From contig CAYOJH010000004.1 of assembly GCA_964404275.1 (NCBI GenBank), positions 5,172-69,171 of the forward strand: DNA of 64,000 bases. Reading direction: 5' to 3'. Position numbers and translations under genes: made by a program. Source of the stretch: an uncultured Gammaproteobacteria bacterium (GTDB lineage Bacteria; Patescibacteriota; Patescibacteriia; SG8-24; DYFX01). Of this stretch, positions 5,490 to 47,530 are shown one piece after another (within the stretch, counting starts at the first letter, position 1; the number at the start of each line of letters is the position of its first letter). Below the pieces are notes generated by a model. It ran no database searches. It was not told the DNA's origin and saw only the letters and a list, made by a program, of their open reading frames with translations.

Positions 5490-5534
5490 CGCTCGTCGCT
5501 CTTTGCCCACCCCCAGCCCAACGTGAGGTCCGCC

Positions 5535-6104
5535 ATGATCCGTGATCTGCCCAAGCAAGTTCCCACCATCGTCCTCGCCGTCGCCGACCGCGTCATCAAG
5601 GAAAGGGAGCGGTTCGAAAACAACCGCTCCGTCGCCATCAGCGCCTTCCGTGCGCACGAGCTGCTGGACCGCGATCTGAGCGCGGAAACCACCGCCGAAC
5701 TCGAAACCCGGGCCGAAGCGATCTGTGACTGGGGCGTGAACGTCCGCGAGGCGCTGCCGATCGTGCGGCTCTACCGCTGGTTCAAAACGGACGCTCCGCC
5801 CGCGCTGACGGTCGTGAACCACCAGATCACGCTCAAGCCCGTCGGGTCGGCCCCCGGCGGCACGCTCAAGATGCGCTTGGATCTCGAGCTCGATCCCGAC
5901 CGCGACGTGCTCTTCCGCCACCACGAGTGGTTCGACGGATATCGCGTGGCGGGCGGCGGCGTCATGAACACCGGCACCTCGCTGCTCATGTCGCTGCACT
6001 CCGAGATGCTCCGTCAGGTCCACGACCTGATCGCCGAGAACCAGATCTGGGAACGCGCCACCAACGACTTCACGAGGCTCCTCGAGAGCTTCAAGGACAG
6101 GTAA
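5535..6104 (+). CDS. hypothetical protein, divergent member 3 of the tandem paralog family
   Basis: C-terminal region HSEMLRQVHDLIAENQIWER resembles HLQMLRPLHREVIEDAVCYRHIQKW of member 1. Confidence 0.45.
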   Translation: MIRDLPKQVPTIVLAVADRVIKERERFENNRSVAISAFRAHELLDRDLSAETTAELETRAEAICDWGVNVREALPIVRLYRWFKTDAPPALTVVNHQITLKPVGSAPGGTLKMRLDLELDPDRDVLFRHHEWFDGYRVAGGGVMNTGTSLLMSLHSEMLRQVHDLIAENQIWERATNDFTRLLESFKDR

Positions 6105-6121: not shown

Positions 6122-6157
6122 TGACGCAAAAACTGACGGCCGTCAGTTTTTGCGTCA
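6122..6157. repeat. perfect 36-bp palindromic repeat TGACGCAAAAACTGACGGCCGTCAGTTTTTGCGTCA (copy 1 of 4)
   Basis: perfect inverted repeat; related copies at 13309, 40359, 40895. Confidence 0.8.
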
Positions 6158-11660: not shown

Positions 11661-12758
11661 ATGCCGTCCATCTTGTTTTTCTCGTTCCCCTACGCCTCTT
11701 CCCGCGGCGGCGGCGAGCGCTATACCGAGCAAACCGTCGAAGGACTTTTGCGCGCCGGAGGCGACGTGACGCTCGTCTCCTCTTCCGAGGCGCTGCTCTC
11801 CGCCTTCGTGTCCAAAAAATGGAAGGTTGTGCCGCTCTGGCTCGGCGTCGAGCCCGTCACGGCTTGGTCGGCGGCGATCTTTCCGCTCTTCGCCATCGTC
11901 GCCTGGCCGATTCTTTTTTTCCTGCTGGCCTGGTTCCGCTGGGCGAAAGGCGTGCGCACGATCGTCTGCCTTTCGATGATCGATAAGCTGCTCGCGACGC
12001 CGATCGCGCGACTCTTCGGCCTGCGCGTCGTCTGGATGGAGCATCTCGTGGCCGGGCGTTCGCTGCGTTTGAATCCGTTTCGTGGATTGTATGTTGCGCT
12101 GTCGAAACGCGTGCGCATCGTGACGGTCTCGGAAGCCGCCGCCGCTTCCTACGCCCAGCTCGGCGTGCCGCGCGATCGTATCGCCGTCATTTCTCCCGGC
12201 GTAGCATCGCTCGCCGCGCAGCCGCCGCGCCGCGCAGGACACGTCATCGGCGCGATCTCGCGTTTCAGCCGCGAAAAGAATGTCGCCTTGCTCCTCAAAG
12301 CCTTCGCGGAAGTTTTGAAATCCATCCCCGACGCGACGCTTGAAATCTACGGCGACGGTCCGGAACGCGCAGCCCTAAAAAAGCTGGCGCAGGATCTCGG
12401 AATCACCGAACAAGCGCATTTCCATGGATATGTAGAACGCATCGGCGATCGTTGCGCCTTCGATGTGCTGGCCGTGCCTTCCTCGCGCGAATCGTTCGGC
12501 ATGGCGGCACTCGAAACGATGCGCTGCGGAATCCCCGTCGTCGCCACGCGCGCGGGTGGGTTGCCGGAAGTCATCGCCGACGGCGAAACGGGAATCGTGG
12601 TTCCGCCTGATGACGCGGCGGCGATGTCGGAAGCGCTCGTCGCGCTCATGAAAGATCCCGCGCGCGCGGCGCACCTGGGCGCGGCCGGGCGCGAACGCGC
12701 GGCGCGCATGTTCAGCGAAGAAAAAATGCAACAGGCATGGACAACGCTCTTGTCGTAG
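11661..12758 (+). CDS. glycosyltransferase family 4 (GT-B, RfaG-like)
   Basis: C-terminal GT4 motifs (SxxESFGMAALETMRCGIPVVATRAGGLPEVI..GETG). Confidence 0.8.
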   Translation: MPSILFFSFPYASSRGGGERYTEQTVEGLLRAGGDVTLVSSSEALLSAFVSKKWKVVPLWLGVEPVTAWSAAIFPLFAIVAWPILFFLLAWFRWAKGVRTIVCLSMIDKLLATPIARLFGLRVVWMEHLVAGRSLRLNPFRGLYVALSKRVRIVTVSEAAAASYAQLGVPRDRIAVISPGVASLAAQPPRRAGHVIGAISRFSREKNVALLLKAFAEVLKSIPDATLEIYGDGPERAALKKLAQDLGITEQAHFHGYVERIGDRCAFDVLAVPSSRESFGMAALETMRCGIPVVATRAGGLPEVIADGETGIVVPPDDAAAMSEALVALMKDPARAAHLGAAGRERAARMFSEEKMQQAWTTLLS

Positions 12759-14014
12759 CGGTCATCGCCAGCGCGGCGCTCCTGCCATTCGAACGCCTCG
12801 GCGCCTTCACGCTCGCCGGCGTCAACATCCGGCCGAGCCAGATCGCGCTCGCGATCGCTTGGCTGCTTTGGATCAGGCTCTGGCTCCTCGGCCGGACGAA
12901 ACTCGCTTGGCGCCGTCCCTCCCTCCTCGCGCTGGCCGGTTTTTTCGCGGTCGCGGGCCTTTCGCTGTTGAACGCGGAAAATCTTCCGCGCTCCCTCGTC
13001 GTGCTCGGCTTCACGCTCTTCACCGCCTCGCTCGCGCTCTTGCTTCCCAACGTCATCAAAGACGAGCGCGCCTTCAAGCGCATCCGCGTCGCCATTGTGC
13101 TCTCCGCCGCGCTCGTCTCCTTGCTCGGCCTCTGGCAATTCGTGGCCGACATGCTCGGCGCGCCGCTTTGGATGACCGGATTGCGCGAGACCTATTCGCG
13201 CGCGATCCTCGGCTTCACGCGCGTGCAAGGCGCCTCGGCCGAGCCGCTCTATTTCGCCGACTACCTGCTGCTGCCCATCTCCTTGGTCGTCACCTGGTTG
13301 TTGCGCCATGACGCAAAAACTGACGGCCGTCGGTTTTTGCGCCCCGTGCAAATCCTGCTCGTCGCCATGTTGATTGACGTTTTCCTCACCGCTTCGCGCG
13401 GCGGCTGGCTCGGCCTCGGCGTGACACTCGTCGTGCTGTTGTGGTGCGAACGGAAGCGCTTGAAGGATTGGCGGCCGATCGCGCGGGCGGGCGGAATCGC
13501 CGTCGCGGCGCTCTCGCTTGGCGTGCTTCTGCTCGGAAGTTTCTTTTCTCCGACGCGCGAAACGGTGACGGATATTTTCTTCACCCACGTCACCAACATC
13601 ACGGGCGGCGCGGCGTATGACGACCGCGCGCAAACGATCTCCGCCGCGCTCGACGCCTGGCGCGCGCATCCTTGGATCGGCGTCGGCTTCGGCGGCTACG
13701 GCCCGTTCGTCTCGACCTTCGCCTTCGCCAAACCGGATGCAGGCTGGCCGATCGTGAATAATGAAACGTTGGAACTGCTCGCCGAAACGGGAGTATTTGG
13801 ACTTGTTGCCTTTCTGATCTTCCTCGTCACGCTTATGCATGAAACCAGCGGGCGGCGCAGGCGATATCCGCAGGAGGCAACACGCATCGCTTGCCTCGCG
13901 GCGCTGGCAGGCATGTTGGCGCAGTACCAGACCTTCTCAACCTTGTATATCATGCATGTGTGGTTTACGATCGGCCTGCTTTTAGCCGCGTCTGAGGCTG
14001 GAAAACCGGCTTGA
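12737..14014 (+). CDS. O-antigen ligase / Wzy_C-family membrane protein; carries an in-frame copy of the 36-bp palindromic repeat
   Basis: multi-TM, periplasmic loop with RGGWLGLG; repeat encodes HDAKTDGRRFLRP. Confidence 0.6.
   Translation: MDNALVVAVIASAALLPFERLGAFTLAGVNIRPSQIALAIAWLLWIRLWLLGRTKLAWRRPSLLALAGFFAVAGLSLLNAENLPRSLVVLGFTLFTASLALLLPNVIKDERAFKRIRVAIVLSAALVSLLGLWQFVADMLGAPLWMTGLRETYSRAILGFTRVQGASAEPLYFADYLLLPISLVVTWLLRHDAKTDGRRFLRPVQILLVAMLIDVFLTASRGGWLGLGVTLVVLLWCERKRLKDWRPIARAGGIAVAALSLGVLLLGSFFSPTRETVTDIFFTHVTNITGGAAYDDRAQTISAALDAWRAHPWIGVGFGGYGPFVSTFAFAKPDAGWPIVNNETLELLAETGVFGLVAFLIFLVTLMHETSGRRRRYPQEATRIACLAALAGMLAQYQTFSTLYIMHVWFTIGLLLAASEAGKPA
13309..13342. repeat. copy 2 of the palindromic repeat (slightly degenerate) located inside a CDS, in frame
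   Basis: TGACGCAAAAACTGACGGCCGTCGGTTTTTGCGC. Confidence 0.75.
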
Positions 14015-14059
14015 CAAAAGATGTAACATTTGTTACATTAAATGTAACACTTGTTACAT
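14011..14059 (+). promoter_or_regulatory. promoter (TTGACA-N17-TACATT) overlapped by two tandem 18-bp palindromic operators ATGTAACAnnTGTTACAT spaced 21 bp apart
   Basis: perfect 8-bp inverted arms repeated twice, AT-rich, directly upstream of the HTH gene. Confidence 0.6.
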
Positions 14060-14308
14060 ATGTCCAAAAAACTCCTCTCACCCACCGAAGTTGCAAGCAT
14101 GCTGGGGATCAGCCGGGTGCACGTCTGGCGGAAGATCCAATCAGGCGAAATTCAAGCCGAGAAAGTCGGCAGTCGTTATGTCGTGCCTGCCGATCAGTTC
14201 AAAACGCTTCAACCTTCCGATCCGGTAAGCGAGAATGAAATCGCAAAGGCCGTGAAGAGGGTCGTAAAGGAATACGGCACCACGCTGAAGAAGCTCGGGG
14301 CCGAGTGA
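14060..14308 (+). CDS. helix-turn-helix DNA-binding protein (excisionase/MerR-like HTH_17), putative antitoxin/autoregulator
   Basis: LSPTEVASMLGISRVHVWRKIQSGEI HTH; 2 nt upstream of a Doc-type toxin gene; low GC. Confidence 0.6.
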   Translation: MSKKLLSPTEVASMLGISRVHVWRKIQSGEIQAEKVGSRYVVPADQFKTLQPSDPVSENEIAKAVKRVVKEYGTTLKKLGAE

Positions 14309-14309
14309 T

Positions 14310-14732
14310 ATGACCCGCAGGCTCAATATTGATCATGTCCGTTTCTTGGCGCACGAGCTCGCGCAACGGCTCATGGAGTGGGGTGAACCCATTCCGCCGT
14401 TTGAAACACGTTATCCGGAAAAGCTGGAATCCTGCCTAACGACGCCGTTCGCGACATATGACAAGAAGGAACTCTACCCGACGCTTGAAGAAAAATCCGC
14501 GATCCTGTTCTATTTGATGATCAAAAATCACCCTTTCAAAAACGGGAATAAAAGGGTGGCAGTGACAACTCTTCTTGTTTTTCTCTCCGCCAACGGAAAA
14601 TGGATGAAAGTCGATGAGCAGCAGCTCTATTCTTTCGCCAAGTGGGTGGCGGAGAGCTTGCCGAGTTTGAAAGACGCGACAGTCTTCGCCGTTATTGACT
14701 TCTTAAAAAAACAGATCGTAAACGCTGCATGA
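14310..14732 (+). CDS. Doc/Fic-family toxin (death-on-curing-like)
   Basis: Doc-type motif HPFKNGNKRVAVT; ~140 aa; low GC relative to flanks. Confidence 0.7.
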   Translation: MTRRLNIDHVRFLAHELAQRLMEWGEPIPPFETRYPEKLESCLTTPFATYDKKELYPTLEEKSAILFYLMIKNHPFKNGNKRVAVTTLLVFLSANGKWMKVDEQQLYSFAKWVAESLPSLKDATVFAVIDFLKKQIVNAA

Positions 14733-15940
14733 CCCTCCTCACCGTCGCCTTCATCGCTTTCGCGCTCCTCGCCTGGAAAAATCTCCGCGCGGCTTTTTTG
14801 CTGTTCGTGGCCGCGCTGCCCACCTACGTGATTCGTTTCCAGGTCGGCCCCTTGCCGACGACGGCGCTCGAAATCCTGTTCGCGATCCTCTTCGCCGCCT
14901 GGATGCTGAAGCGCGAGAAACGCCTGATCGACATCAAAGGCTGGGGCTGGCTGCTGCTCGCCTGGATCGCCGTCGCGACGGTTTCGCTCTTCGTCTCCCC
15001 CGATTTTCGCGCGGCGGCCGGCGTCTGGAAAGCCTATTTCATCGAGCCTATCCTCTTCTTCCTGATCGCCAACGACCTGCTACGCACGCAAGCGGACCGC
15101 GAGGCGGCCGTGCATTCGCTGGCCTGGTCGGCGATCGCGATTTCGATTCCAGCCATCCTCCAGCATTGGACGAACTGGGGCGTGCCGCCTCCCTGGAACC
15201 TGCCGGGACAGGAGCGTTCGACCTCGATCTACGGCTATCCGAACGCGACGGGTTTGTTCCTGGCGCCGATCGTTCCGCTGTTTTTCAAAAAGAAACCGCT
15301 GCACCTTATCGCGCTCGCCTGCTCGCTGGCCGCGATCGTGTTGGTGCAATCCGAAGGCGCGATCGTCGGCCTGATCGCCGCGACCGGCGTCTTCCTGCTG
15401 TGCTTCAAAGAGACGCGCAAGCGCGCGCTCGCCGTCGGCGCGATCCTGGCCGTCGTGATTTTTGCCGTTCCCGCTACCCGCGCGGTCGCGATCGAAAAAC
15501 TCACGCTGAACGATTGGTCCGGCCGCGTGCGCAAAGAGATGTGGGGCGAAACCATGAACATGCTGAAAGATCACGCCGTGTTCGGCGCGGGCCTCTCCGG
15601 CTACCCGATCGTCTTCAACCCCTATCACAAAGCGCGGCACATCGAGATCTTCCAATATCCGCATGACATTCTCTTGAACTTCTGGGTCGAGACCGGCTTA
15701 GCCGGCGTGCTCGTGTTCTTCCTTCTGGTCGGACAGGATCTTCAAACCATCCGCAGTCTCATGAAGCGCGATCCTCGCCTGCGCGCCTGGTGCGCGATGC
15801 TCTTCGCTTCGATGACGGCGCTGCTCGTCCACGGCCTGGTCGACGTCCCCTATTTCAAAAACGATCTCTCGATGCTGTTCTGGCTCTTGCTCGCCTTCGC
15901 CGCCTCGAGCTTGGCCGAAACGAAAACGCCGCCCCGTTAG
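14729..15940 (+). CDS. O-antigen ligase / polymerase-family (Wzy_C-like) membrane protein
   Basis: multi-TM with large periplasmic loop; second paralog in the locus. Confidence 0.6.
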   Translation: MTLLTVAFIAFALLAWKNLRAAFLLFVAALPTYVIRFQVGPLPTTALEILFAILFAAWMLKREKRLIDIKGWGWLLLAWIAVATVSLFVSPDFRAAAGVWKAYFIEPILFFLIANDLLRTQADREAAVHSLAWSAIAISIPAILQHWTNWGVPPPWNLPGQERSTSIYGYPNATGLFLAPIVPLFFKKKPLHLIALACSLAAIVLVQSEGAIVGLIAATGVFLLCFKETRKRALAVGAILAVVIFAVPATRAVAIEKLTLNDWSGRVRKEMWGETMNMLKDHAVFGAGLSGYPIVFNPYHKARHIEIFQYPHDILLNFWVETGLAGVLVFFLLVGQDLQTIRSLMKRDPRLRAWCAMLFASMTALLVHGLVDVPYFKNDLSMLFWLLLAFAASSLAETKTPPR

Positions 15941-20343: not shown

Positions 20344-20359
20344 CAACTCTCCGCATCCA

Positions 20360-20456
20360 CAACTCCCCCTGCCCCCTCTTTAGCAAAGAGGGGGTTTTGG
20401 TTAAAAAATGTCCTCCCCTTTGCTAAAGGGGAGGTGCCGAAGGCGGAGGGGTTGTG
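20360..20456. repeat. ~100-bp double-hairpin repeat element, copy 1 (upstream flank of pilin array)
   Basis: CAACTCCCCCTGCCCCCTCTTTAGCAAAGAGGGGG...CCTCCCCTTTGCTAAAGGGGAGGTGCCGAAGGCGGAGGGGTTGTG; near-identical to 25732..25830. Confidence 0.85.
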
Positions 20457-20472
20457 TTACACTATTTTCACT

Positions 20473-21105
20473 ATGAAGCGTTTTCTCCGCGTCGCCTTGC
20501 CCGTCGCGCTCGTGCTCGTTCCGGTGGCCGTTTCGGCCATCACGATCCTGCCTCCTTGCACGGCCACGGGCGATTGCGGCGTGACGGATATCCTGGCCGT
20601 GCTGGTCAACGTGGCCGAATACCTGCTGGGCATTTCGGGCGCGGTCGCGCTGGCGATGTTCGTCTACGGCGGCTTCACCTTCGTGCTCGCGGCCGGCGAT
20701 AAAACGAAAGTCGGCAAGGCGATCGGCATCCTGAAGAGCGCGGTCATCGGCATCGCCATCATTTTCCTCTCCGGCGTGATCGTGCGCTTCGCGACGAAAG
20801 CGCTGACCGGCGGCAGCTCGGCCATCCCGACCGTCGGCGAGAACTGCGACCCCATCTCGAAAAAGAGCGCGTCGGGAGGAGCCGGCCTCTGGATTTCCGT
20901 GCCGCCCGGCGTCGACGACAACGGCAAGCTCTTGCCGGAACAGTTGATGTGCATCCACAAGAAAGGCGGCTGCGCGGAACTTCAAGGCGTGCTGACCAGC
21001 CGGCATCGATTGGAAAAATATTCTTGCAAAGCGATCAACACCGCCGCGAGCTGCGTGCGCAGCCTATGCCCAGAGCAAGGCGCCGACTACGCCTGCTGCC
21101 TCTGA
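20473..21105 (+). CDS. VirB2/TrbC-like ('T4SS pilin'-like) secreted membrane protein, paralog 1, with C-terminal Cys-rich extension
   Basis: signal peptide; hydrophobic helix-charged loop-helix core ...FVYGGFTFVLAAGDKTKVGKAIGILKSAVIGIAIIFLSGVIV. Confidence 0.65.
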   Translation: MKRFLRVALPVALVLVPVAVSAITILPPCTATGDCGVTDILAVLVNVAEYLLGISGAVALAMFVYGGFTFVLAAGDKTKVGKAIGILKSAVIGIAIIFLSGVIVRFATKALTGGSSAIPTVGENCDPISKKSASGGAGLWISVPPGVDDNGKLLPEQLMCIHKKGGCAELQGVLTSRHRLEKYSCKAINTAASCVRSLCPEQGADYACCL

Positions 21106-21106
21106 T

Positions 21107-22117
21107 ATGAAACGCCTTTCCGTATGTATCGCCGCGATCGTCTTCGGACTTTCTTTGGCGCCGGCGGCCTTCGCCCTCACTCTCCCTTGCTATTGCAAAT
21201 ACGGGGCGAGCAAGGCCGGCTGGGATTCGGATTCGGCGCGTTTCTGCCCGAATGAAACGTATTTCTCGGGTACCGTCGATGCCGGCACGTTCCCGCTCTC
21301 CTATGGCAGCACGGCTGACGACAACTGCCAGGCGCGTTGCGCCTCGGAGGGATCCGCCTTTGTCGATATTACGACCGTTTCTCCGAGTCAGTGGGCTTCC
21401 TTCGGGAGTTCAGACAACCTGGTGCTGGCGGAAAAAAGCTACTGCGTGCTCCGCTCGGACAGCGCCGCGACGGTCCAAGGCTGGTCTTCCAGCTACTTGA
21501 GCTGCAAAAAACCGCTCAACAGCATCGTCTATAAGGACAATCCGACCGGCCAGGTTCCGGACAGCTGCTCGTATTGCTTCTGCAAGTTCAAGACGGGCGG
21601 CTCGACGCCCTCGAGCTGCAGCGGAAAAACGACGATGGTCCACATCACCGGCGACGCGAGCACGTGTTCGAACATCTGCACGAGCTTCGGCCTCGACAAC
21701 GGCGACAGCACGAAAGACTACGGCAGCCATTGCGATTTCCAGCTTTCCGACCAGTGCGCGAAGCCGCTTAACCCCGACGGGAGCGGCTGCCAGTCCGAGC
21801 TCGGGGCCATTTCCGATCAGAAGAAAGCCGACGCCTTCCAGGCCAGCCATGGCACCGCGCTCGGTTTGACGCTGCCGCTCGGCGACATCACCTTTCCGCA
21901 GCTGATCGGCCGCGTCATCAAGCAGCTGCTCGGCATCGTCGGCGCCTTGGCGCTCGTCTTCTTCATCTGGGGCGGCCTCAAATACATGACGGCCCAAGGC
22001 GACGACAAGAAAATCAAAGAGGCGCGCGACATGATCGTCGCCGCCATTTCCGGCTTGGCCGCGATCTTCCTGTCCTACGCGCTCCTGACACTGCTCATCA
22101 ATACGCTGTCGAAATAG
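21107..22117 (+). CDS. VirB2/TrbC-like pilin paralog 2 with large N-terminal Cys-rich domain
   Basis: signal peptide, ~20 Cys, C-terminal core LLGIVGALALVFFIWGGLKYMTAQGDDKKIKEARDMIVAAISGLAAIFLSYALL. Confidence 0.65.
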   Translation: MKRLSVCIAAIVFGLSLAPAAFALTLPCYCKYGASKAGWDSDSARFCPNETYFSGTVDAGTFPLSYGSTADDNCQARCASEGSAFVDITTVSPSQWASFGSSDNLVLAEKSYCVLRSDSAATVQGWSSSYLSCKKPLNSIVYKDNPTGQVPDSCSYCFCKFKTGGSTPSSCSGKTTMVHITGDASTCSNICTSFGLDNGDSTKDYGSHCDFQLSDQCAKPLNPDGSGCQSELGAISDQKKADAFQASHGTALGLTLPLGDITFPQLIGRVIKQLLGIVGALALVFFIWGGLKYMTAQGDDKKIKEARDMIVAAISGLAAIFLSYALLTLLINTLSK

Positions 22118-22118
22118 T

Positions 22119-22487
22119 ATGAAACGCAAGATTGCCCGCCTTCTCTCGACGCTCGTCATCTTCGCCGCAAGCGCGTCCGGAGCCTTGGCCGATACCGGTT
22201 CAAGTGCCACGAGTTCCTCCGACAAGACCGTCAGATTGGTGAATCCGCTTAACGTTTCGACGGTGCCCCAGCTCGTGGCCAACCTGCTCAAGGCCGCCAT
22301 GGGGATCATCGGCGCCTTGGCACTCTTGGTCTTCATCTACGGGGGATTCATTTGGTTGACCTCGGGAGGCGAGGCTGGTAAAATTCAGGCAGGCAAAGAC
22401 GCCATGAAGTGGGCGGCGATCGGACTCGTCGTGATCTTCACCAGTTACGCGCTCGTCAGTTTCGTGTTCAAAGCGATAACGGGCTAA
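22119..22487 (+). CDS. VirB2/TrbC-like pilin paralog 3
   Basis: signal peptide + core GIIGALALLVFIYGGFIWLTSGGEAGKIQAGKDAMKWAAIGLVVIFTSYALV. Confidence 0.65.
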   Translation: MKRKIARLLSTLVIFAASASGALADTGSSATSSSDKTVRLVNPLNVSTVPQLVANLLKAAMGIIGALALLVFIYGGFIWLTSGGEAGKIQAGKDAMKWAAIGLVVIFTSYALVSFVFKAITG

Positions 22488-22509
22488 CGCCTGAAAGGAG
22501 GTGAGTTGC

Positions 22510-22899
22510 ATGACGAAAAAAACGCTTATCAAGGGTCTGATCAGCACGGCAATGGTTGCGACAATGGCGCTCCCCATGGTCGCTTTGGCTCAAAACCCCG
22601 TGACGTCCAACGAACTTCTGCCCGGCCAGATCGCCACCGAGCTCGGCCAGCAGCAGCAGGACCTGCGCATCACCATCGCGAGAATCATCCGCACGGCCAT
22701 GAGCCTTCTGGGCATCGTCGCCGTTCTGATCATTCTGTACGGCGGCTTCAAGTGGATGACCTCCGGCGGATCCGACGAAGCCACGGGCGACGCGAAGAAG
22801 ATCATTACGGCCGGCGTGATCGGTCTCGTGATCATTCTGACCGCGTACGCGATCGCTTCCTTCGTGATCAACAGCCTCGTAACCGCGACCTCCCAGTAA
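22510..22899 (+). CDS. VirB2/TrbC-like pilin paralog 4
   Basis: RBS AAAGGAGGTGA 8 nt upstream; core LLGIVAVLIILYGGFKWMTSGGSDEATGDAKKIITAGVIGLVIILTAYAIA. Confidence 0.65.
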   Translation: MTKKTLIKGLISTAMVATMALPMVALAQNPVTSNELLPGQIATELGQQQQDLRITIARIIRTAMSLLGIVAVLIILYGGFKWMTSGGSDEATGDAKKIITAGVIGLVIILTAYAIASFVINSLVTATSQ

Positions 22900-22910
22900 C
22901 GCATCTTTAC

Positions 22911-22982
22911 GCGACCCTGCACCGTATGGTGCAGGGTCGTCGCAAGGACTCGGGAAATGCCCTGCACCGTACGGTGCAGGGC
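22911..22982 (+). repeat. two tandem hairpins CCCTGCACC-N4/5-GGTGCAGGG between pilin paralogs 4 and 5, no T-tract
   Basis: same hairpin family as 3903 and 44355. Confidence 0.6.
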
Positions 22983-23013
22983 GCCTCCGGACTCCTTGAA
23001 CCTCGAACCACGT

Positions 23014-23514
23014 ATGCGCTTGAAACGCATTCTCCTCCCCGCGCTCTGCCTGGCGGCGACCGCCCTGATGGCGATCCCGCTCGCCCACGCAGCCAGCGAC
23101 CATTTCGGACTCGACACCGCCGCCGGCGGCGCCGGCCTCAAGAATCTGGACTTGCCGACGACGATCGGCGTCCTGATCAAGAGCGTGCTCAGCTTCCTCG
23201 GCATCCTCTTCCTGGTACTCACGCTCTACGCCGGCTTCCTCTACATGACGGCCCAAGGCGACGAGAAGAAGGTCGCCAAGGCCAAGAGCATCGTGACCGG
23301 CGCGGTCATCGGCCTGGTCATCATCGCCGCCTCCTACGCGATCACGAGCTTCGTCCTCGGCGCGATCACCGGCACCGCGAGCACGTCCAACACCTCGAAC
23401 ACTTCCAATACGTCGACGATCGGCACGGTCCAGAAAGGCGGCGCGTGCACGAGCGGAAGCGATTGCGCCGCCGGCCTGATCTGCGACATCGGAGGATCCA
23501 ATACCTGCATCTGA
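23014..23514 (+). CDS. VirB2/TrbC-like pilin paralog 5 with C-terminal (TSN)n repeat and Cys-containing tail
   Basis: core FLGILFLVLTLYAGFLYMTAQGDEKKVAKAKSIVTGAVIGLVIIAASYAIT. Confidence 0.65.
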   Translation: MRLKRILLPALCLAATALMAIPLAHAASDHFGLDTAAGGAGLKNLDLPTTIGVLIKSVLSFLGILFLVLTLYAGFLYMTAQGDEKKVAKAKSIVTGAVIGLVIIAASYAITSFVLGAITGTASTSNTSNTSNTSTIGTVQKGGACTSGSDCAAGLICDIGGSNTCI

Positions 23515-23515
23515 T

Positions 23516-23854
23516 ATGCGCACTCTCCACAAACTCGCCCAGGACTTCGGAGCCGGAAATCTCAAAACCGTCGGCGATACGGCCAAGATCACCTCGAACG
23601 TCACGCTGCCCGTCCTGATCGGCAACCTGATCCGCACGTTCATCGGGCTCCTCGGCATCATCTTCCTCCTGCTCACGGTCTACGCCGGTTTCCTCTGGCT
23701 GACGGCCCAAGGCGACGAGAAGAAGGTCGAGCATGCCAAAGGCCTGCTCAAGAACGCCGTGATCGGCCTCGTGATCATCGCCGCCGCCTACGCCATCTCC
23801 GCCTTCGTCGTCAACGCGCTCGCCCACGTGGCCGGCGGCACGAATCCCACCTAA
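23516..23854 (+). CDS. VirB2/TrbC-like pilin paralog 6
   Basis: core FIGLLGIIFLLLTVYAGFLWLTAQGDEKKVEHAKGLLKNAVIGLVIIAAAYAIS. Confidence 0.65.
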   Translation: MRTLHKLAQDFGAGNLKTVGDTAKITSNVTLPVLIGNLIRTFIGLLGIIFLLLTVYAGFLWLTAQGDEKKVEHAKGLLKNAVIGLVIIAAAYAISAFVVNALAHVAGGTNPT

Positions 23855-23876
23855 CCTCGCTCATCATTTACCTTCT

Positions 23877-24299
23877 ATGGCGAAAAAAATCCTTCTGGGG
23901 CTGCTCTCGCTCCTGACCGTCGGCCAAATGGCCTTGGCCGCGCTGCCCGCCGGCGCGCAGGCTCCCTGCGATCCTTCGACCGGCAACTCGCTCGGCTGTC
24001 TCAGCGCCGCGAATCCCAGCAACACGCCGACCGACGCGGTCACGGCCGGCCAGCAGCTGCCGCTCCTGATCGGACGCCTCATCCGCACGATGCTCGGTCT
24101 CCTCGGCATCATCTTCCTGGTCCTGATGGTCTACGCCGGCTTCCTCTGGATGACGGCCCGCGGCGATGACGAACCCGTCACGAAAGCCAAAGACATCATC
24201 CGCCAGGCGATCATCGGCCTCATCATCGTCTTCGTCGCCTACGCCTTGACCGGCTTCATCATCAACGCGGTGCTCCGCGCCACCTCGGGAACGCCATAA
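23877..24299 (+). CDS. VirB2/TrbC-like pilin paralog 7
   Basis: signal peptide; core MLGLLGIIFLVLMVYAGFLWMTARGDDEPVTKAKDIIRQAIIGLIIVFVAYALT. Confidence 0.65.
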   Translation: MAKKILLGLLSLLTVGQMALAALPAGAQAPCDPSTGNSLGCLSAANPSNTPTDAVTAGQQLPLLIGRLIRTMLGLLGIIFLVLMVYAGFLWMTARGDDEPVTKAKDIIRQAIIGLIIVFVAYALTGFIINAVLRATSGTP

Positions 24300-25701: not shown

Positions 25702-25731
25702 CTTGGACAGGCGGAACGTCTCCGCGGCCAA

Positions 25732-25830
25732 CAACTCCCCCTGCCCCCTCTTTAGCAAAGAGGGGGTTTTTAAATGTCCTCCCCTTTGCTAAAGGGGAGG
25801 TGCCCGAAGGGCGGAGGGGTTGTGGCCGCG
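25732..25830. repeat. ~100-bp double-hairpin repeat element, copy 2 (downstream flank of pilin array), direct orientation
   Basis: near-identical to 20360..20456. Confidence 0.85.
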
Positions 25831-34930: not shown

Positions 34931-34988
34931 ACAGGTAAAGTATATCGCTAGGCCGTTCCTTTGACAAAGACGCACGAGGGCTTGGGTT

Positions 34989-35160
34989 ATGTCATCCCTG
35001 CGAAAGCAGGGATCCAGTACCGCCAGAAGTCGTTATTGAACTGGATTCCAGCTTGCGCTGGAATGACAAGGGGGCGTGCGTCGAGCCGTGCATGTCATCC
35101 CTGCGAAAGCAGGGGGCAGCACTTACACATGTCATCCCTGCGAAAGCAGGGATCCAGTAC
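34989..35160. repeat. cluster of four REP-like hairpin repeats (TGTCATCCCTGCGAAAGCAGGGATCCAGTAC and variant GGATTCCAGCTTGCGCTGGAATGACA)
   Basis: copies at 34989-35019, 35038-35070, 35093-35119, 35129-35160; family also at 748-775, 35451-35482, 42264-42289, 17197-17268. Confidence 0.75.
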
Positions 35161-35450: not shown

Positions 35451-35482
35451 GTACTGGATTCCAGCTTGCGCTGGAATGACAT
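35451..35482. repeat. REP-like repeat (CCAGCTTGCGCTGG variant) abutting the GIY-YIG start
   Basis: GTACTGGATTCCAGCTTGCGCTGGAATGACAT. Confidence 0.7.
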
Positions 35483-40303: not shown

Positions 40304-40338
40304 AAGAGACGGCCCTACGGGGGTCGTCTTTTCGTTTC
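40304..40338 (+). terminator. Rho-independent terminator after smc
   Basis: agacggccctacgggggtcgtct + T-run. Confidence 0.6.
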
Positions 40339-40358
40339 ATGTCTTGGTCAAAAACACG

Positions 40359-40394
40359 TGACGTAAATTCTGACGGCCGTCAGTTTTTGCGTCA
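40359..40394. repeat. palindromic repeat copy 3 (TGACGTAAATTCTGACGGCCGTCAGTTTTTGCGTCA)
   Basis: right arm identical to copy 1, left arm variant. Confidence 0.75.
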
Positions 40395-40790
40395 GGGTTC
40401 CCGGATCGAAAAAATCCGAATCCAGCCATCGAGCTTCGATCGACGGGTCCAGAGATGGAGTTTCTCGGCGATGCATTTGTCGGATATCCAGACGCTTCCC
40501 TGAAGGCGGCGGCAACCGATCGCGCGCAGCAAATCGCGGAAGGCGGCGCGGACATGCCGTTGCGACTCCGGAATGTCGAAAGCGACCAGCGTGCGGAAAC
40601 CGTCCGTCCGAAGGGGCGAGGTCTTCAGTGCGTGTCGCAAGCGCGCCGCTTCTCCTTGCGCCGTGCACACCAAAAGCAGCCGACCGCCGCGCCGTCTGGC
40701 CTCCAAAAGGCCTCTTCGCTTCAGATCGCGGATGCGACGCCGTAGCTTGCGGAAACGTTCTTCCTCGGCAATCCGCCGCAATCCCTCCAT
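40392..40790 (-). CDS. small regulator-like protein (basic wHTH-like N-terminus, C-terminal segment weakly Cas2/VapD-like), start uncertain (track ORF to 40940 runs into repeat)
   Basis: ...LVAFDIPESQRHVRAAFRDLLRAIGCRRLQGSVWIS...; flanked by direct copies of the palindromic repeat. Confidence 0.35.
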   Translation of the reverse strand: MEGLRRIAEEERFRKLRRRIRDLKRRGLLEARRRGGRLLLVCTAQGEAARLRHALKTSPLRTDGFRTLVAFDIPESQRHVRAAFRDLLRAIGCRRLQGSVWISDKCIAEKLHLWTRRSKLDGWIRIFSIREP

Positions 40791-40894
40791 CCCTTGCGAA
40801 ATGGCGACTCTGGGATATCGCCGCGTGCCATAGAGGAACAGCTTTCCGTCCGAGGCCGCCTGCAGCAAAGCCCCGGTCAGCCATTTGGCGACGG

Positions 40895-40930
40895 GGCGCG
40901 AATTCTGACGGCCGTCAGTTTTTGCGTCAC
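40895..40930. repeat. palindromic repeat copy 4 (GCGCGAATTCTGACGGCCGTCAGTTTTTGCGTCA), direct with copy 3
   Basis: identical 29-bp core to copy 3. Confidence 0.75.
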
Positions 40931-40987
40931 GGGCGCGCATATGCCACCGCCTACGCGAAGTCGTGCTTCGCTGTCAATAAAAAACGA

Positions 40988-41020
40988 CGACCTCAAGGGG
41001 TCGTCTTTTCGTTCTGAGAT
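40988..41020. terminator. bidirectional terminator
   Basis: aaaaacgacgacctcaaggggtcgtcttttcg. Confidence 0.55.
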
Positions 41021-41727
41021 TCGAGCGGGGTGCCGCGGAAGGGATCGAGGTCCGTGCGCGGATAGAGTTCCGCATGCAAACGGTTCATCTCGTCGGCGAT
41101 CTTCACCGTCAGAGGTTGAAGGCGAGCGTACTGCTCGCTCAGCATCCGCCAGCGGATTTCCTTCAGCTTGCGGCTGTCGTTAGCAAACGCCTCCAGCAAC
41201 ATGTCAAAACGTCTCAGCTGATGAGGCATCATACTGCAGTTGCTGGGGAACTTTCTTGTCAGAGAGTCCTCGCCCTCGTATTCCAAGCCACATGCTTCGC
41301 AATAGACGCCGACCTTCGCTCGCTCGACCAGCCCCATGTCTCTCGCGGTGCCGGGCGGAGTCTTGTGCAGGATCTGATCGATCTTGACGAGGCGACCACT
41401 GCAGTAGTGGCAGCTGTGGCCGAAGCTGAAATCGGCCAGGAAACATCCGAGCAGCTGCGGATCGATCTCGCGTTTCGGATCGGCGTTGTACTCGCGGCCG
41501 TCTTTCTCCACGAAGGTCCAGTCGCCCATCCGATCTTCGTGCTGAACGATCAGGATGCCGGCGAGCTCGTAGAGCGACGGGGTGCGCGAGGGCGGTTCCG
41601 GAGCCGGCGTTGCCGACGGTACCGGTGCGGGCAGGATCTGCCGGTCGGTTTCCCGTTTCCGGGAGATGATGACCGTGAAACCGATGAGGAAGAGGATGAA
41701 CAGAAAGACGCCGGTGACGGGATCCAT
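40993..41727 (-). CDS. membrane-anchored protein with two zinc-ribbon-like Cys pairs
   Basis: N-terminal TM; CHYC...CEAC motifs. Confidence 0.5.
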   Translation of the reverse strand: MDPVTGVFLFILFLIGFTVIISRKRETDRQILPAPVPSATPAPEPPSRTPSLYELAGILIVQHEDRMGDWTFVEKDGREYNADPKREIDPQLLGCFLADFSFGHSCHYCSGRLVKIDQILHKTPPGTARDMGLVERAKVGVYCEACGLEYEGEDSLTRKFPSNCSMMPHQLRRFDMLLEAFANDSRKLKEIRWRMLSEQYARLQPLTVKIADEMNRLHAELYPRTDLDPFRGTPLESQNEKTTP

Positions 41728-42153: not shown

Positions 42154-42263
42154 GAGGCCGATATACGCCACCTTGACGCTTTTGTCAATCTCCTTTATAG
42201 TGGCCCCGTTCGCGCTGCAGAACCGCGGGAAGCTCTCACCTCGCGCTTCTACACATACGTAAT

Positions 42264-42289
42264 GGATCCCTGCGTTCGCAGGGATGACA
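42264..42289. repeat. REP-like repeat (GGATCCCTGCGTTCGCAGGGATGACA) just upstream of rpsP
   Basis: inverted orientation of the TGTCATCCCTGCG family. Confidence 0.65.
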
Positions 42290-47474: not shown

Positions 47475-47530
47475 TGCCTCCCCTTTGCTAAAGGGGAGGT
47501 GCCCGCAGGGCGGAGGGGTTGTGGCCGCGA
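47475..47530. repeat. partial third copy of the ~100-bp element (second hairpin + GGCGGAGGGGTTGTGGCCGCG tail)
   Basis: TGCCTCCCCTTTGCTAAAGGGGAGGTGCCCGCAGGGCGGAGGGGTTGTGGCCGCG. Confidence 0.8.

Follow-up and report, generated by a model that had tools for sequence, protein, structure and literature searches.

A short PaaX-family protein with a Cas2-like domain and paired lineage-specific palindromes at both ends of its gene in Patescibacteria

Organization of the locus

The DNA analysed here, referred to as the window, is a stretch of 64 kb with a G+C content of 61%. Its RuvB groups with Patescibacteria MAGs in a 90% cluster, which also includes RuvB WKZ28815.1 of a Patescibacteria genome, and the DNA is accordingly assigned to a Patescibacteria (CPR) bacterium. 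It contains a compact module with one minus-strand gene, two copies of a palindromic repeat and terminator-like hairpins on both sides, and two additional palindrome copies are located elsewhere in the window. The features are as follows.

40392-40940, minus strand: gene for a winged-helix plus Cas2-like (PaaX_M) protein of 182 aa, taken from the open reading frame (ORF) list; matches PF20803 and TIGR01573; FDIPE motif at residues 121-125
40895-40930: promoter-proximal palindrome copy, codons 4-16, core CTGACGGCCGTCAG at 40905-40918; proposed operator 1
40359-40394: palindrome copy at the 3' end of the gene, core at 40370-40383, with the stop codon (40392-40394) inside; proposed operator 2
40949-40977, minus strand: promoter-like motif, TTGACA (40977-40972), 17 nt, GTAGGC (40954-40949), then 8 nt to the ATG
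40986-41005, minus strand: terminator-like hairpin (terminator scan) of the upstream minus-strand ORF (40993-41727); upstream boundary of the module
40304-40332, plus strand: terminator-like hairpin (terminator scan) of smc, converging on the module; downstream boundary of the module
40320-40336: exact 17-nt repeat GGGGTCGTCTTTTCGTT, the first of its only two copies in the window
40997-41013: second copy of GGGGTCGTCTTTTCGTT, which together with its partner brackets the whole 677-bp module
6122-6157: extra palindrome copy, a perfect 36-nt palindrome TGACGCAAAAACTGACGGCCGTCAGTTTTTGCGTCA, 41 nt upstream of the ruvB start
13309-13344: extra palindrome copy, in frame within a Wzy_C (O-antigen-ligase-like) gene and encoding DAKTDGRRFLRP

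The repeats at 40359-40394 and 40895-40930 had been pointed out in the preliminary description of this DNA, and their presence was confirmed by an exact 29-mer, AATTCTGACGGCCGTCAGTTTTTGCGTCA, that occurs at 40366-40394 and 40901-40929 (0.00 matches expected in shuffles). The 42-nt repeat pair that includes them (40356-40397 and 40891-40932) is 88% identical, and each of the two copies bearing the 29-mer is an imperfect palindrome in itself. The only credible ORF between the copies is the 182-aa one, in line with the single minus-strand ORF of ~130-180 aa described previously. The arrangement differs from that description, however, in that the copies do not simply flank the ORF: the upstream copy lies inside it, and the downstream copy, read on the gene strand, begins with the stop codon TGA (40394-40392).

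The palindrome family consists of four sites in the 64 kb, and a profile built from these four copies detected no further members in the window. The copy at 6122-6157 is placed after the stop codon of an ORF (5523-6104) and forms a strong hairpin (z = -4.15). The 12 residues encoded by the copy at 13309-13344 fall in a loop of the Wzy_C protein whose length is variable, and in a comparison meant to reveal a clean 36-nt insertion, the nearest homologue obtained by representative-library search and alignment is only ~6 residues shorter in this loop and partly similar. A scan of genome contigs with CYGACGRYCGTCRGTTTTTGC yielded eight single matches in unrelated bacteria. The same scan of metagenome contigs yielded 21 loci, and no family gene was present within the fetched DNA of these loci. 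Among the metagenome loci, low-GC, CPR-like-looking contigs (L014-L033) carry a common intergenic palindrome, TTAACGCACTTTCTGACGATCGTCGGTTTTTGCGTTAA (for example, at 3025-3065 of L030), that is similar to the window palindrome; within the fetched DNA of these contigs, no PaaX_M-type gene was found.

The GGGGTCGTCTTTTCGTT direct repeat at the module boundaries represents one arm and the T-run of two hairpins that otherwise differ, namely the smc terminator and the one belonging to the minus-strand ORF upstream. This upstream ORF encodes 244 aa and runs into its own terminator, whose stem and loop supply its last six codons (NEKTTP) together with its stop codon. The GGGGTCGTCTTTTCGTT pair could be a rearrangement scar left when smc was placed next to the gene, or a duplication generated by an insertion.

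Domain structure of the protein and its family

The 182-aa protein matched PF20803 (PaaX_M) over residues 113-179 with 47.6 bits (cutoff 24; E=1.8e-12). It also matched TIGR01573 (cas2) with 27.4 bits (cutoff 24.5; E=2.9e-6) and the Cas2 models of PADLOC, and the score obtained with Pfam Cas2 (22.3 bits) was just below the cutoff of 23.8. An AlphaFold2 model generated with a 40-sequence family alignment as input had a pLDDT of 87.7. When this model was compared with the PDB by Foldseek, PaaX of E. coli (8A39) was placed on top, followed by many Cas2 chains (probability 0.99-1.0) and VapD. The N-terminal half is a basic winged-helix region with a beta-hairpin wing at residues 79-92 in the model. 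The family profile aligned to residues 57-171 of PaaX 8A39, a range that includes the recognition helix, the wing and the Cas2-like domain (E=7e-5), and it matched the winged helices of AspA and MarR more weakly. PF07848, the N-terminal winged helix of PaaX, gave no match to the protein at E<=10. PF08223 (PaaX_C) was not matched either, the protein ending three residues past the Cas2-like domain; this domain is present in a distant relative (P0003). These results bear out the earlier suggestions of a basic wHTH-like N-terminus and a Cas2/VapD-like C-terminal stretch, and the domains and fold support the reading of the gene product as a solo Cas2-like/PaaX-like regulator.

PaaX is a DNA-binding repressor of phenylacetate catabolism that acts at operator sites, with phenylacetyl-CoA as effector. 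The E. coli protein (PF07848, PF20803 and PF08223) is the best match to the window protein in both sequence profile and fold, and the two share an N-terminal winged helix followed by a Cas2-like domain. However, PaaX consists of 316 aa, whereas the window protein consists of 182 aa and is devoid of PaaX_C. No paa genes were detected among the neighbours scanned, and sites on both sides of the gene, as present at the window gene, were not found reported for PaaX.

Eight residues (F121, D122, P124, E125, R131, R135, Q147 and S149) are the same in all 40 family members compared. The conserved Asp that closes strand 1 is matched by the Cas2 model. Neither this Cas2-type Asp nor the FDIPE motif varies within the family, and both are missing from E. 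coli PaaX, which hints at an enzymatic or ligand-binding role that would go beyond that of a regulator. A nuclease role, if present, would bear on the origins of Cas2 and VapD.

The profile search detected 338 proteins of ~170-200 aa with the same architecture. The named members go under Cas2 or PaaX and belong to Patescibacteria group or Candidatus Sungbacteria bacteria, and several public sources label them 'CRISPR-associated endonuclease Cas2'. Hundreds of Patescibacteria proteins of ~180 aa thus carry 'Cas2' or 'PaaX' labels without a known role. The closest homologue of the window protein (P0002) is 52% identical. In the literature library that we searched, which is incomplete, no paper was found on PaaX with Cas2 or Cas2-like proteins, on PaaX with Patescibacteria or on the paired palindromes, and a paper on VapD toxin-antitoxin systems makes no mention of the family. 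This silence on the family and on its paired palindromes is weak evidence of novelty.

The labels raise the question of whether the protein is a true Cas2, that is, a relic or a dispersed part of a CRISPR-Cas adaptation system. The matches to TIGR01573 and to the PADLOC models fit such an origin, as do the public names. On the other hand, there is no CRISPR-like array in the 64-kb window, there are no cas genes among the neighbours scanned, as the preliminary description had also stated, and no cas1 is present in the contexts of the 11 loci described below. In addition, PaaX_M outscores Pfam Cas2 (47.6 versus 22.3 bits), and the domain is fused to a winged helix. We therefore regard a true Cas2 as highly improbable. 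The protein differs from Cas2 and VapD systems in the same respects, with no cas1, array or VapX-type partner and with a DNA-binding domain fused on. A VapD-type toxin-antitoxin pair was rejected: the module contains no small partner ORF, and the gene is preceded by a promoter-like motif of its own and enclosed by terminators.

Conservation of paired palindromes in related loci

The comparative set comprised 11 loci, namely the window and ten relatives with 25-52% protein identity. Two copies of a lineage-specific palindrome bracket the gene in all 11 loci, weakly in the case of L035. The palindromes of the ten relatives are as follows.

L001: CCGACGATCGTCGG
L012: GTGACGATCGTCAC
L011: TTGTCCGGTCGGACAA
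L034: TTGCGGTCGCAA
L036: ATGTCTGGCCAGACAT
L037: CCGCCGATCGGCGG
L038: ~42 nt, ATGTCAACAAT..TACGATCGTA..ATTGTTGACAT
L039: TTGCCGATCGGCAA
L040: ~40 nt, AGTATACAA..CACGATCGTG..TTGTATACT
L035: weak, with a matched score of 7

For each locus, the sequence around the start was compared with that past the stop codon, and the best local match was taken as the pairing score. The matched scores of the 11 loci were 29, 19, 13, 18, 11, 7, 12, 11, 32, 12 and 27, against a mean of 7.95 (sd 1.47, maximum 15) for the 110 mismatched locus pairs. In all of the loci (11/11), a related copy begins 0-36 nt past the stop codon, and in L001, L012, L011 and L034, as well as weakly in L035, the upstream copy that is related to the downstream one is found at the matching position. 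The two copies are in direct orientation in the window, L001 and L011 and in inverted orientation in L038 and L040. The centres of the two sites are separated by 535-641 bp, and no common helical phase was found among these spacings. In five other loci (6-20 kb each), no copies were present beyond the two that flank the gene.

When 24 sites were aligned by their centres, the central CGR|YCG was found to be nearly invariant. The remaining palindrome sequence varies by lineage, and both arms change together: 81% of the arm positions pair versus 55% in shuffles, a percentage inflated by the choice of centres for maximal symmetry, and the covariation score was 0.667 versus 0.225 for shuffled sites and <=0.20 when the partner column was slid. 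Since relatives with identities down to 25% retain the two-palindrome layout with sequences of their own, the palindromes appear to be an old, co-evolving cis-element rather than a recent capture. The matched pairs of proteins and sites also provide a natural data set for the drift of winged-helix specificity.

Position of the palindromes relative to predicted promoters

The six closest loci share a conserved TTGACR-N17-GTAGGC motif whose end lies 7-14 nt ahead of the ATG. The upstream palindrome is located downstream of this motif and starts ~7-19 nt after the ATG. Alignment of the six orthologous upstream regions shows no variation in TTGAC or in the TA of the second hexamer. The consensus promoter scan missed the window motif at 40949-40977 because its second hexamer is atypical. 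The short distance between the motif and the ATG suggests that the mRNA would have little or no leader.

The palindrome is placed differently in the distant members, where the upstream copy precedes the transcription start. In L040, a predicted promoter (TTGACA-16-TATACT, 11/12 consensus positions) is entirely contained in the upstream palindrome, and in L039, the predicted -35 element is the centre of the palindrome. In L036 and L037, the T-rich end of the palindrome runs into the predicted -35 element TTGACT. According to these in silico promoter predictions, the palindrome overlaps the gene's own promoter or transcription start in L036, L037, L039, L040 and the window subfamily.

In L038 (10571-11514), the palindrome after the stop codon contains a TTGACA hexamer and is located upstream of parA-parB; this second site might control a downstream promoter.

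DNA site or RNA hairpin

The palindromes could alternatively be hairpins in RNA or DNA that serve as terminators, as insulators against read-through or as stabilisers of mRNA ends. The downstream copies, which lie directly past the stop codon, do fold strongly, with z values from -2.2 (the window copy) to -7.3; many copies show the shape A-tract/hairpin/T-tract, and the consensus scan labels several copies, including both window copies on the plus strand, as terminator-like. The covariation of the arms suits a hairpin as well as the site of a dimer. However, in the window, L001, L012 and L011, the upstream copy folds no better than shuffles (z about 0; +0.53 in the window), and yet it retains one arm of the downstream copy as well as its centre. 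In L037 and L036, the T-run of the downstream copy precedes the stem and the A-run follows it, which makes a poor terminator in either direction; A/T tracts are indeed found around the core in either order, and the sites are not consistently terminator-shaped. Furthermore, hairpins give no account of why a lineage-specific sequence is shared between the two ends of the gene in 10-11 independent lineages, and the other terminators in the window differ from the palindromes. We consider this explanation improbable. Taken together, the folding, orientation and tract order, the placement of the upstream copy before the transcription start in distant members and the winged helix of the protein favour a symmetric duplex site bound by a dimer. 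Nothing relevant was found in Rfam.

Genomic neighbourhood and mobility

The neighbours scanned in this study include smc, DHH, ClpP and S16 genes and ORFs with no assignment. The position next to smc was described correctly in the preliminary account, and the membrane-protein operon placed on the other side corresponds only loosely to what is found, two upstream ORFs with no family match. Both smc and ClpP are located near the gene in the window and in its closest relative, L001, and the DHH phosphoesterases near the gene are 67% identical between the two. In L011, a DHH gene is located just downstream. The upstream neighbours showed no homology among the window, L001 and L011. The shared DHH/ClpP/smc neighbourhood indicates that the gene is an old resident there, with some local rearrangement.

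No second copy of the gene exists in the 64-kb window, and no homologue of the 182-aa protein was detected in phage, plasmid and viral collections or in PHROGs. The sequences beside the two palindrome copies differ, and no target-site duplications are present next to them. The proposal that the unit is a MITE or a MITE-mobilised cassette was therefore rejected: the direct pair is self-palindromic and lacks such duplications, the gene occurs once in the window, the neighbourhood is shared with L001, and the relatives keep the layout with palindromes of their own. An integron cassette was likewise rejected, as the 36-nt palindrome contains no GTTRRRY core and no integrase is encoded among the neighbours scanned.

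A broader form of mobility was also considered, in which the promoter, gene and palindromes constitute a small mobile or recombining module with the Cas2-like domain as its nuclease or recombinase, possibly a REP/RAYT-like variant whose protein spreads the palindrome. As in REP/RAYT systems, a single-copy gene is flanked by palindromes that are also found elsewhere in the genome and that co-vary with the protein lineage. Two extra copies in the window, one of them in frame inside a gene, the exact 17-nt duplication around the entire 677-bp module, the difference in gene order from L001 and the invariant Cas2-type Asp are all compatible with this possibility. However, RAYT proteins are HUH/Y1 transposases, whereas the present protein is a winged-helix plus Cas2-like protein and not an HUH/Y1 enzyme, and REP palindromes reach tens to hundreds of dispersed copies; the stretches covered here have a very low number, four in the 64 kb of the window and none beyond the gene in the five other loci of 6-20 kb. 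The occurrence of one gene copy per locus, the neighbourhood shared by the window and L001 and the lack of homologues in the phage, plasmid and viral collections also argue against it, and the copy orientation is variable, unlike that expected for strand-specific hairpin transposition. A mobile module is thus unlikely in general, and for the window alone, the gene is an ordinary resident gene and not a mobile cassette.

Proposed function of the protein and its sites

The explanation that we prefer, with a probability of roughly 0.6, is that the gene encodes a self-regulating PaaX-family protein with twin cognate operators that bracket its own gene. It builds on direct observations, namely the arrangement of domains in the protein, the presence of both sites with co-evolving sequences in the 11 loci and the overlap of the upstream site with predicted promoters. 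According to this model, the product would be a short PaaX-family DNA-binding protein with a winged helix at its N-terminus and, at its C-terminus, a Cas2-like domain through which it probably dimerises, and both palindromes would be its own cognate binding sites. Occupancy of the first site, which lies at the promoter or at the start of transcription, would allow the protein to keep its own synthesis repressed. Two roles are conceivable for the second site, past the stop codon: it may act jointly with the first one, with the ~540-bp gene looped between them, or it may block transcription that enters or leaves the gene.

A similar arrangement is known for the CI protein of phage lambda, in which the OR and OL operators bracket the repressor's own gene and loop. 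In both cases, the regulator gene lies between cognate palindromic sites, and a promoter-proximal site serves, or here would serve, autoregulation. However, the proteins are unrelated, and the sites of lambda are spaced by 2.4 kb versus 535-641 bp here; looping and higher-order assembly are hypothetical at the present loci. We found no established precedent for a site after the stop codon.

Some points sit less comfortably with the operator model. The extra copy inside the Wzy gene is placed midway through a coding region, an unusual location for an operator. In addition, it is hard to see what a regulator would be for if its sites were confined to the two ends of its own gene, and the protein therefore probably has another activity too. 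The two extra copies, upstream of ruvB and inside the Wzy gene, may be further targets in the genome of the window.

In a more far-reaching reading, these short winged-helix plus Cas2-like proteins of Patescibacteria would be more than plain regulators: each would have an intact Cas2-type active site, constitute a self-contained module with its two co-evolving palindromes and act on these palindromes, as a site-specific nuclease or nickase, as a tightly self-repressed toxin or as a spreader of the palindrome. We consider this doubtful, with the odds well against it. If it were true, the extra copies in the window and the 17-nt duplication would be traces of the activity, and the family could be a surviving link from PaaX-type regulators to Cas2/VapD nucleases. 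The paired palindromes provide the family with a concrete, testable DNA target, and they count against its annotation as Cas2.

Other repeats and gene clusters in the window

Two other families of dispersed repeats were observed. The first is a hairpin repeat of ~29 nt (ATGTCATYCCWGCG..GCWGGRATSCAG) present at 745-775, 34987-35017, 35040-35068, 35127-35157, 35453-35481 and 42261-42289, with four of the copies clustered between clpP and the DHH gene. This family also occurs in L001 (8950-9059, 9151-9176 and 15965-16003), where one copy adjoins a GIY-YIG gene. The second family (CCTCCCCTTTGCTAAAGGGGAGG...) is present at 20359-20464, 25731-25830 and 47477-47529; its 40-nt partner is 100% identical at 20359 and 25731, and by its appearance it is a small hairpin element.

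The window also contains a run of six adjacent genes (20434-24299), each encoding a T4SS_pilin domain (PF18895), four of which are tandem paralogues ~450 nt apart. Finally, an HTH_17 gene and a Fic/DOC gene (14051-14732), which resemble a toxin-antitoxin pair, are located between the two Wzy_C genes at 12737-14014 and 14729-15940.
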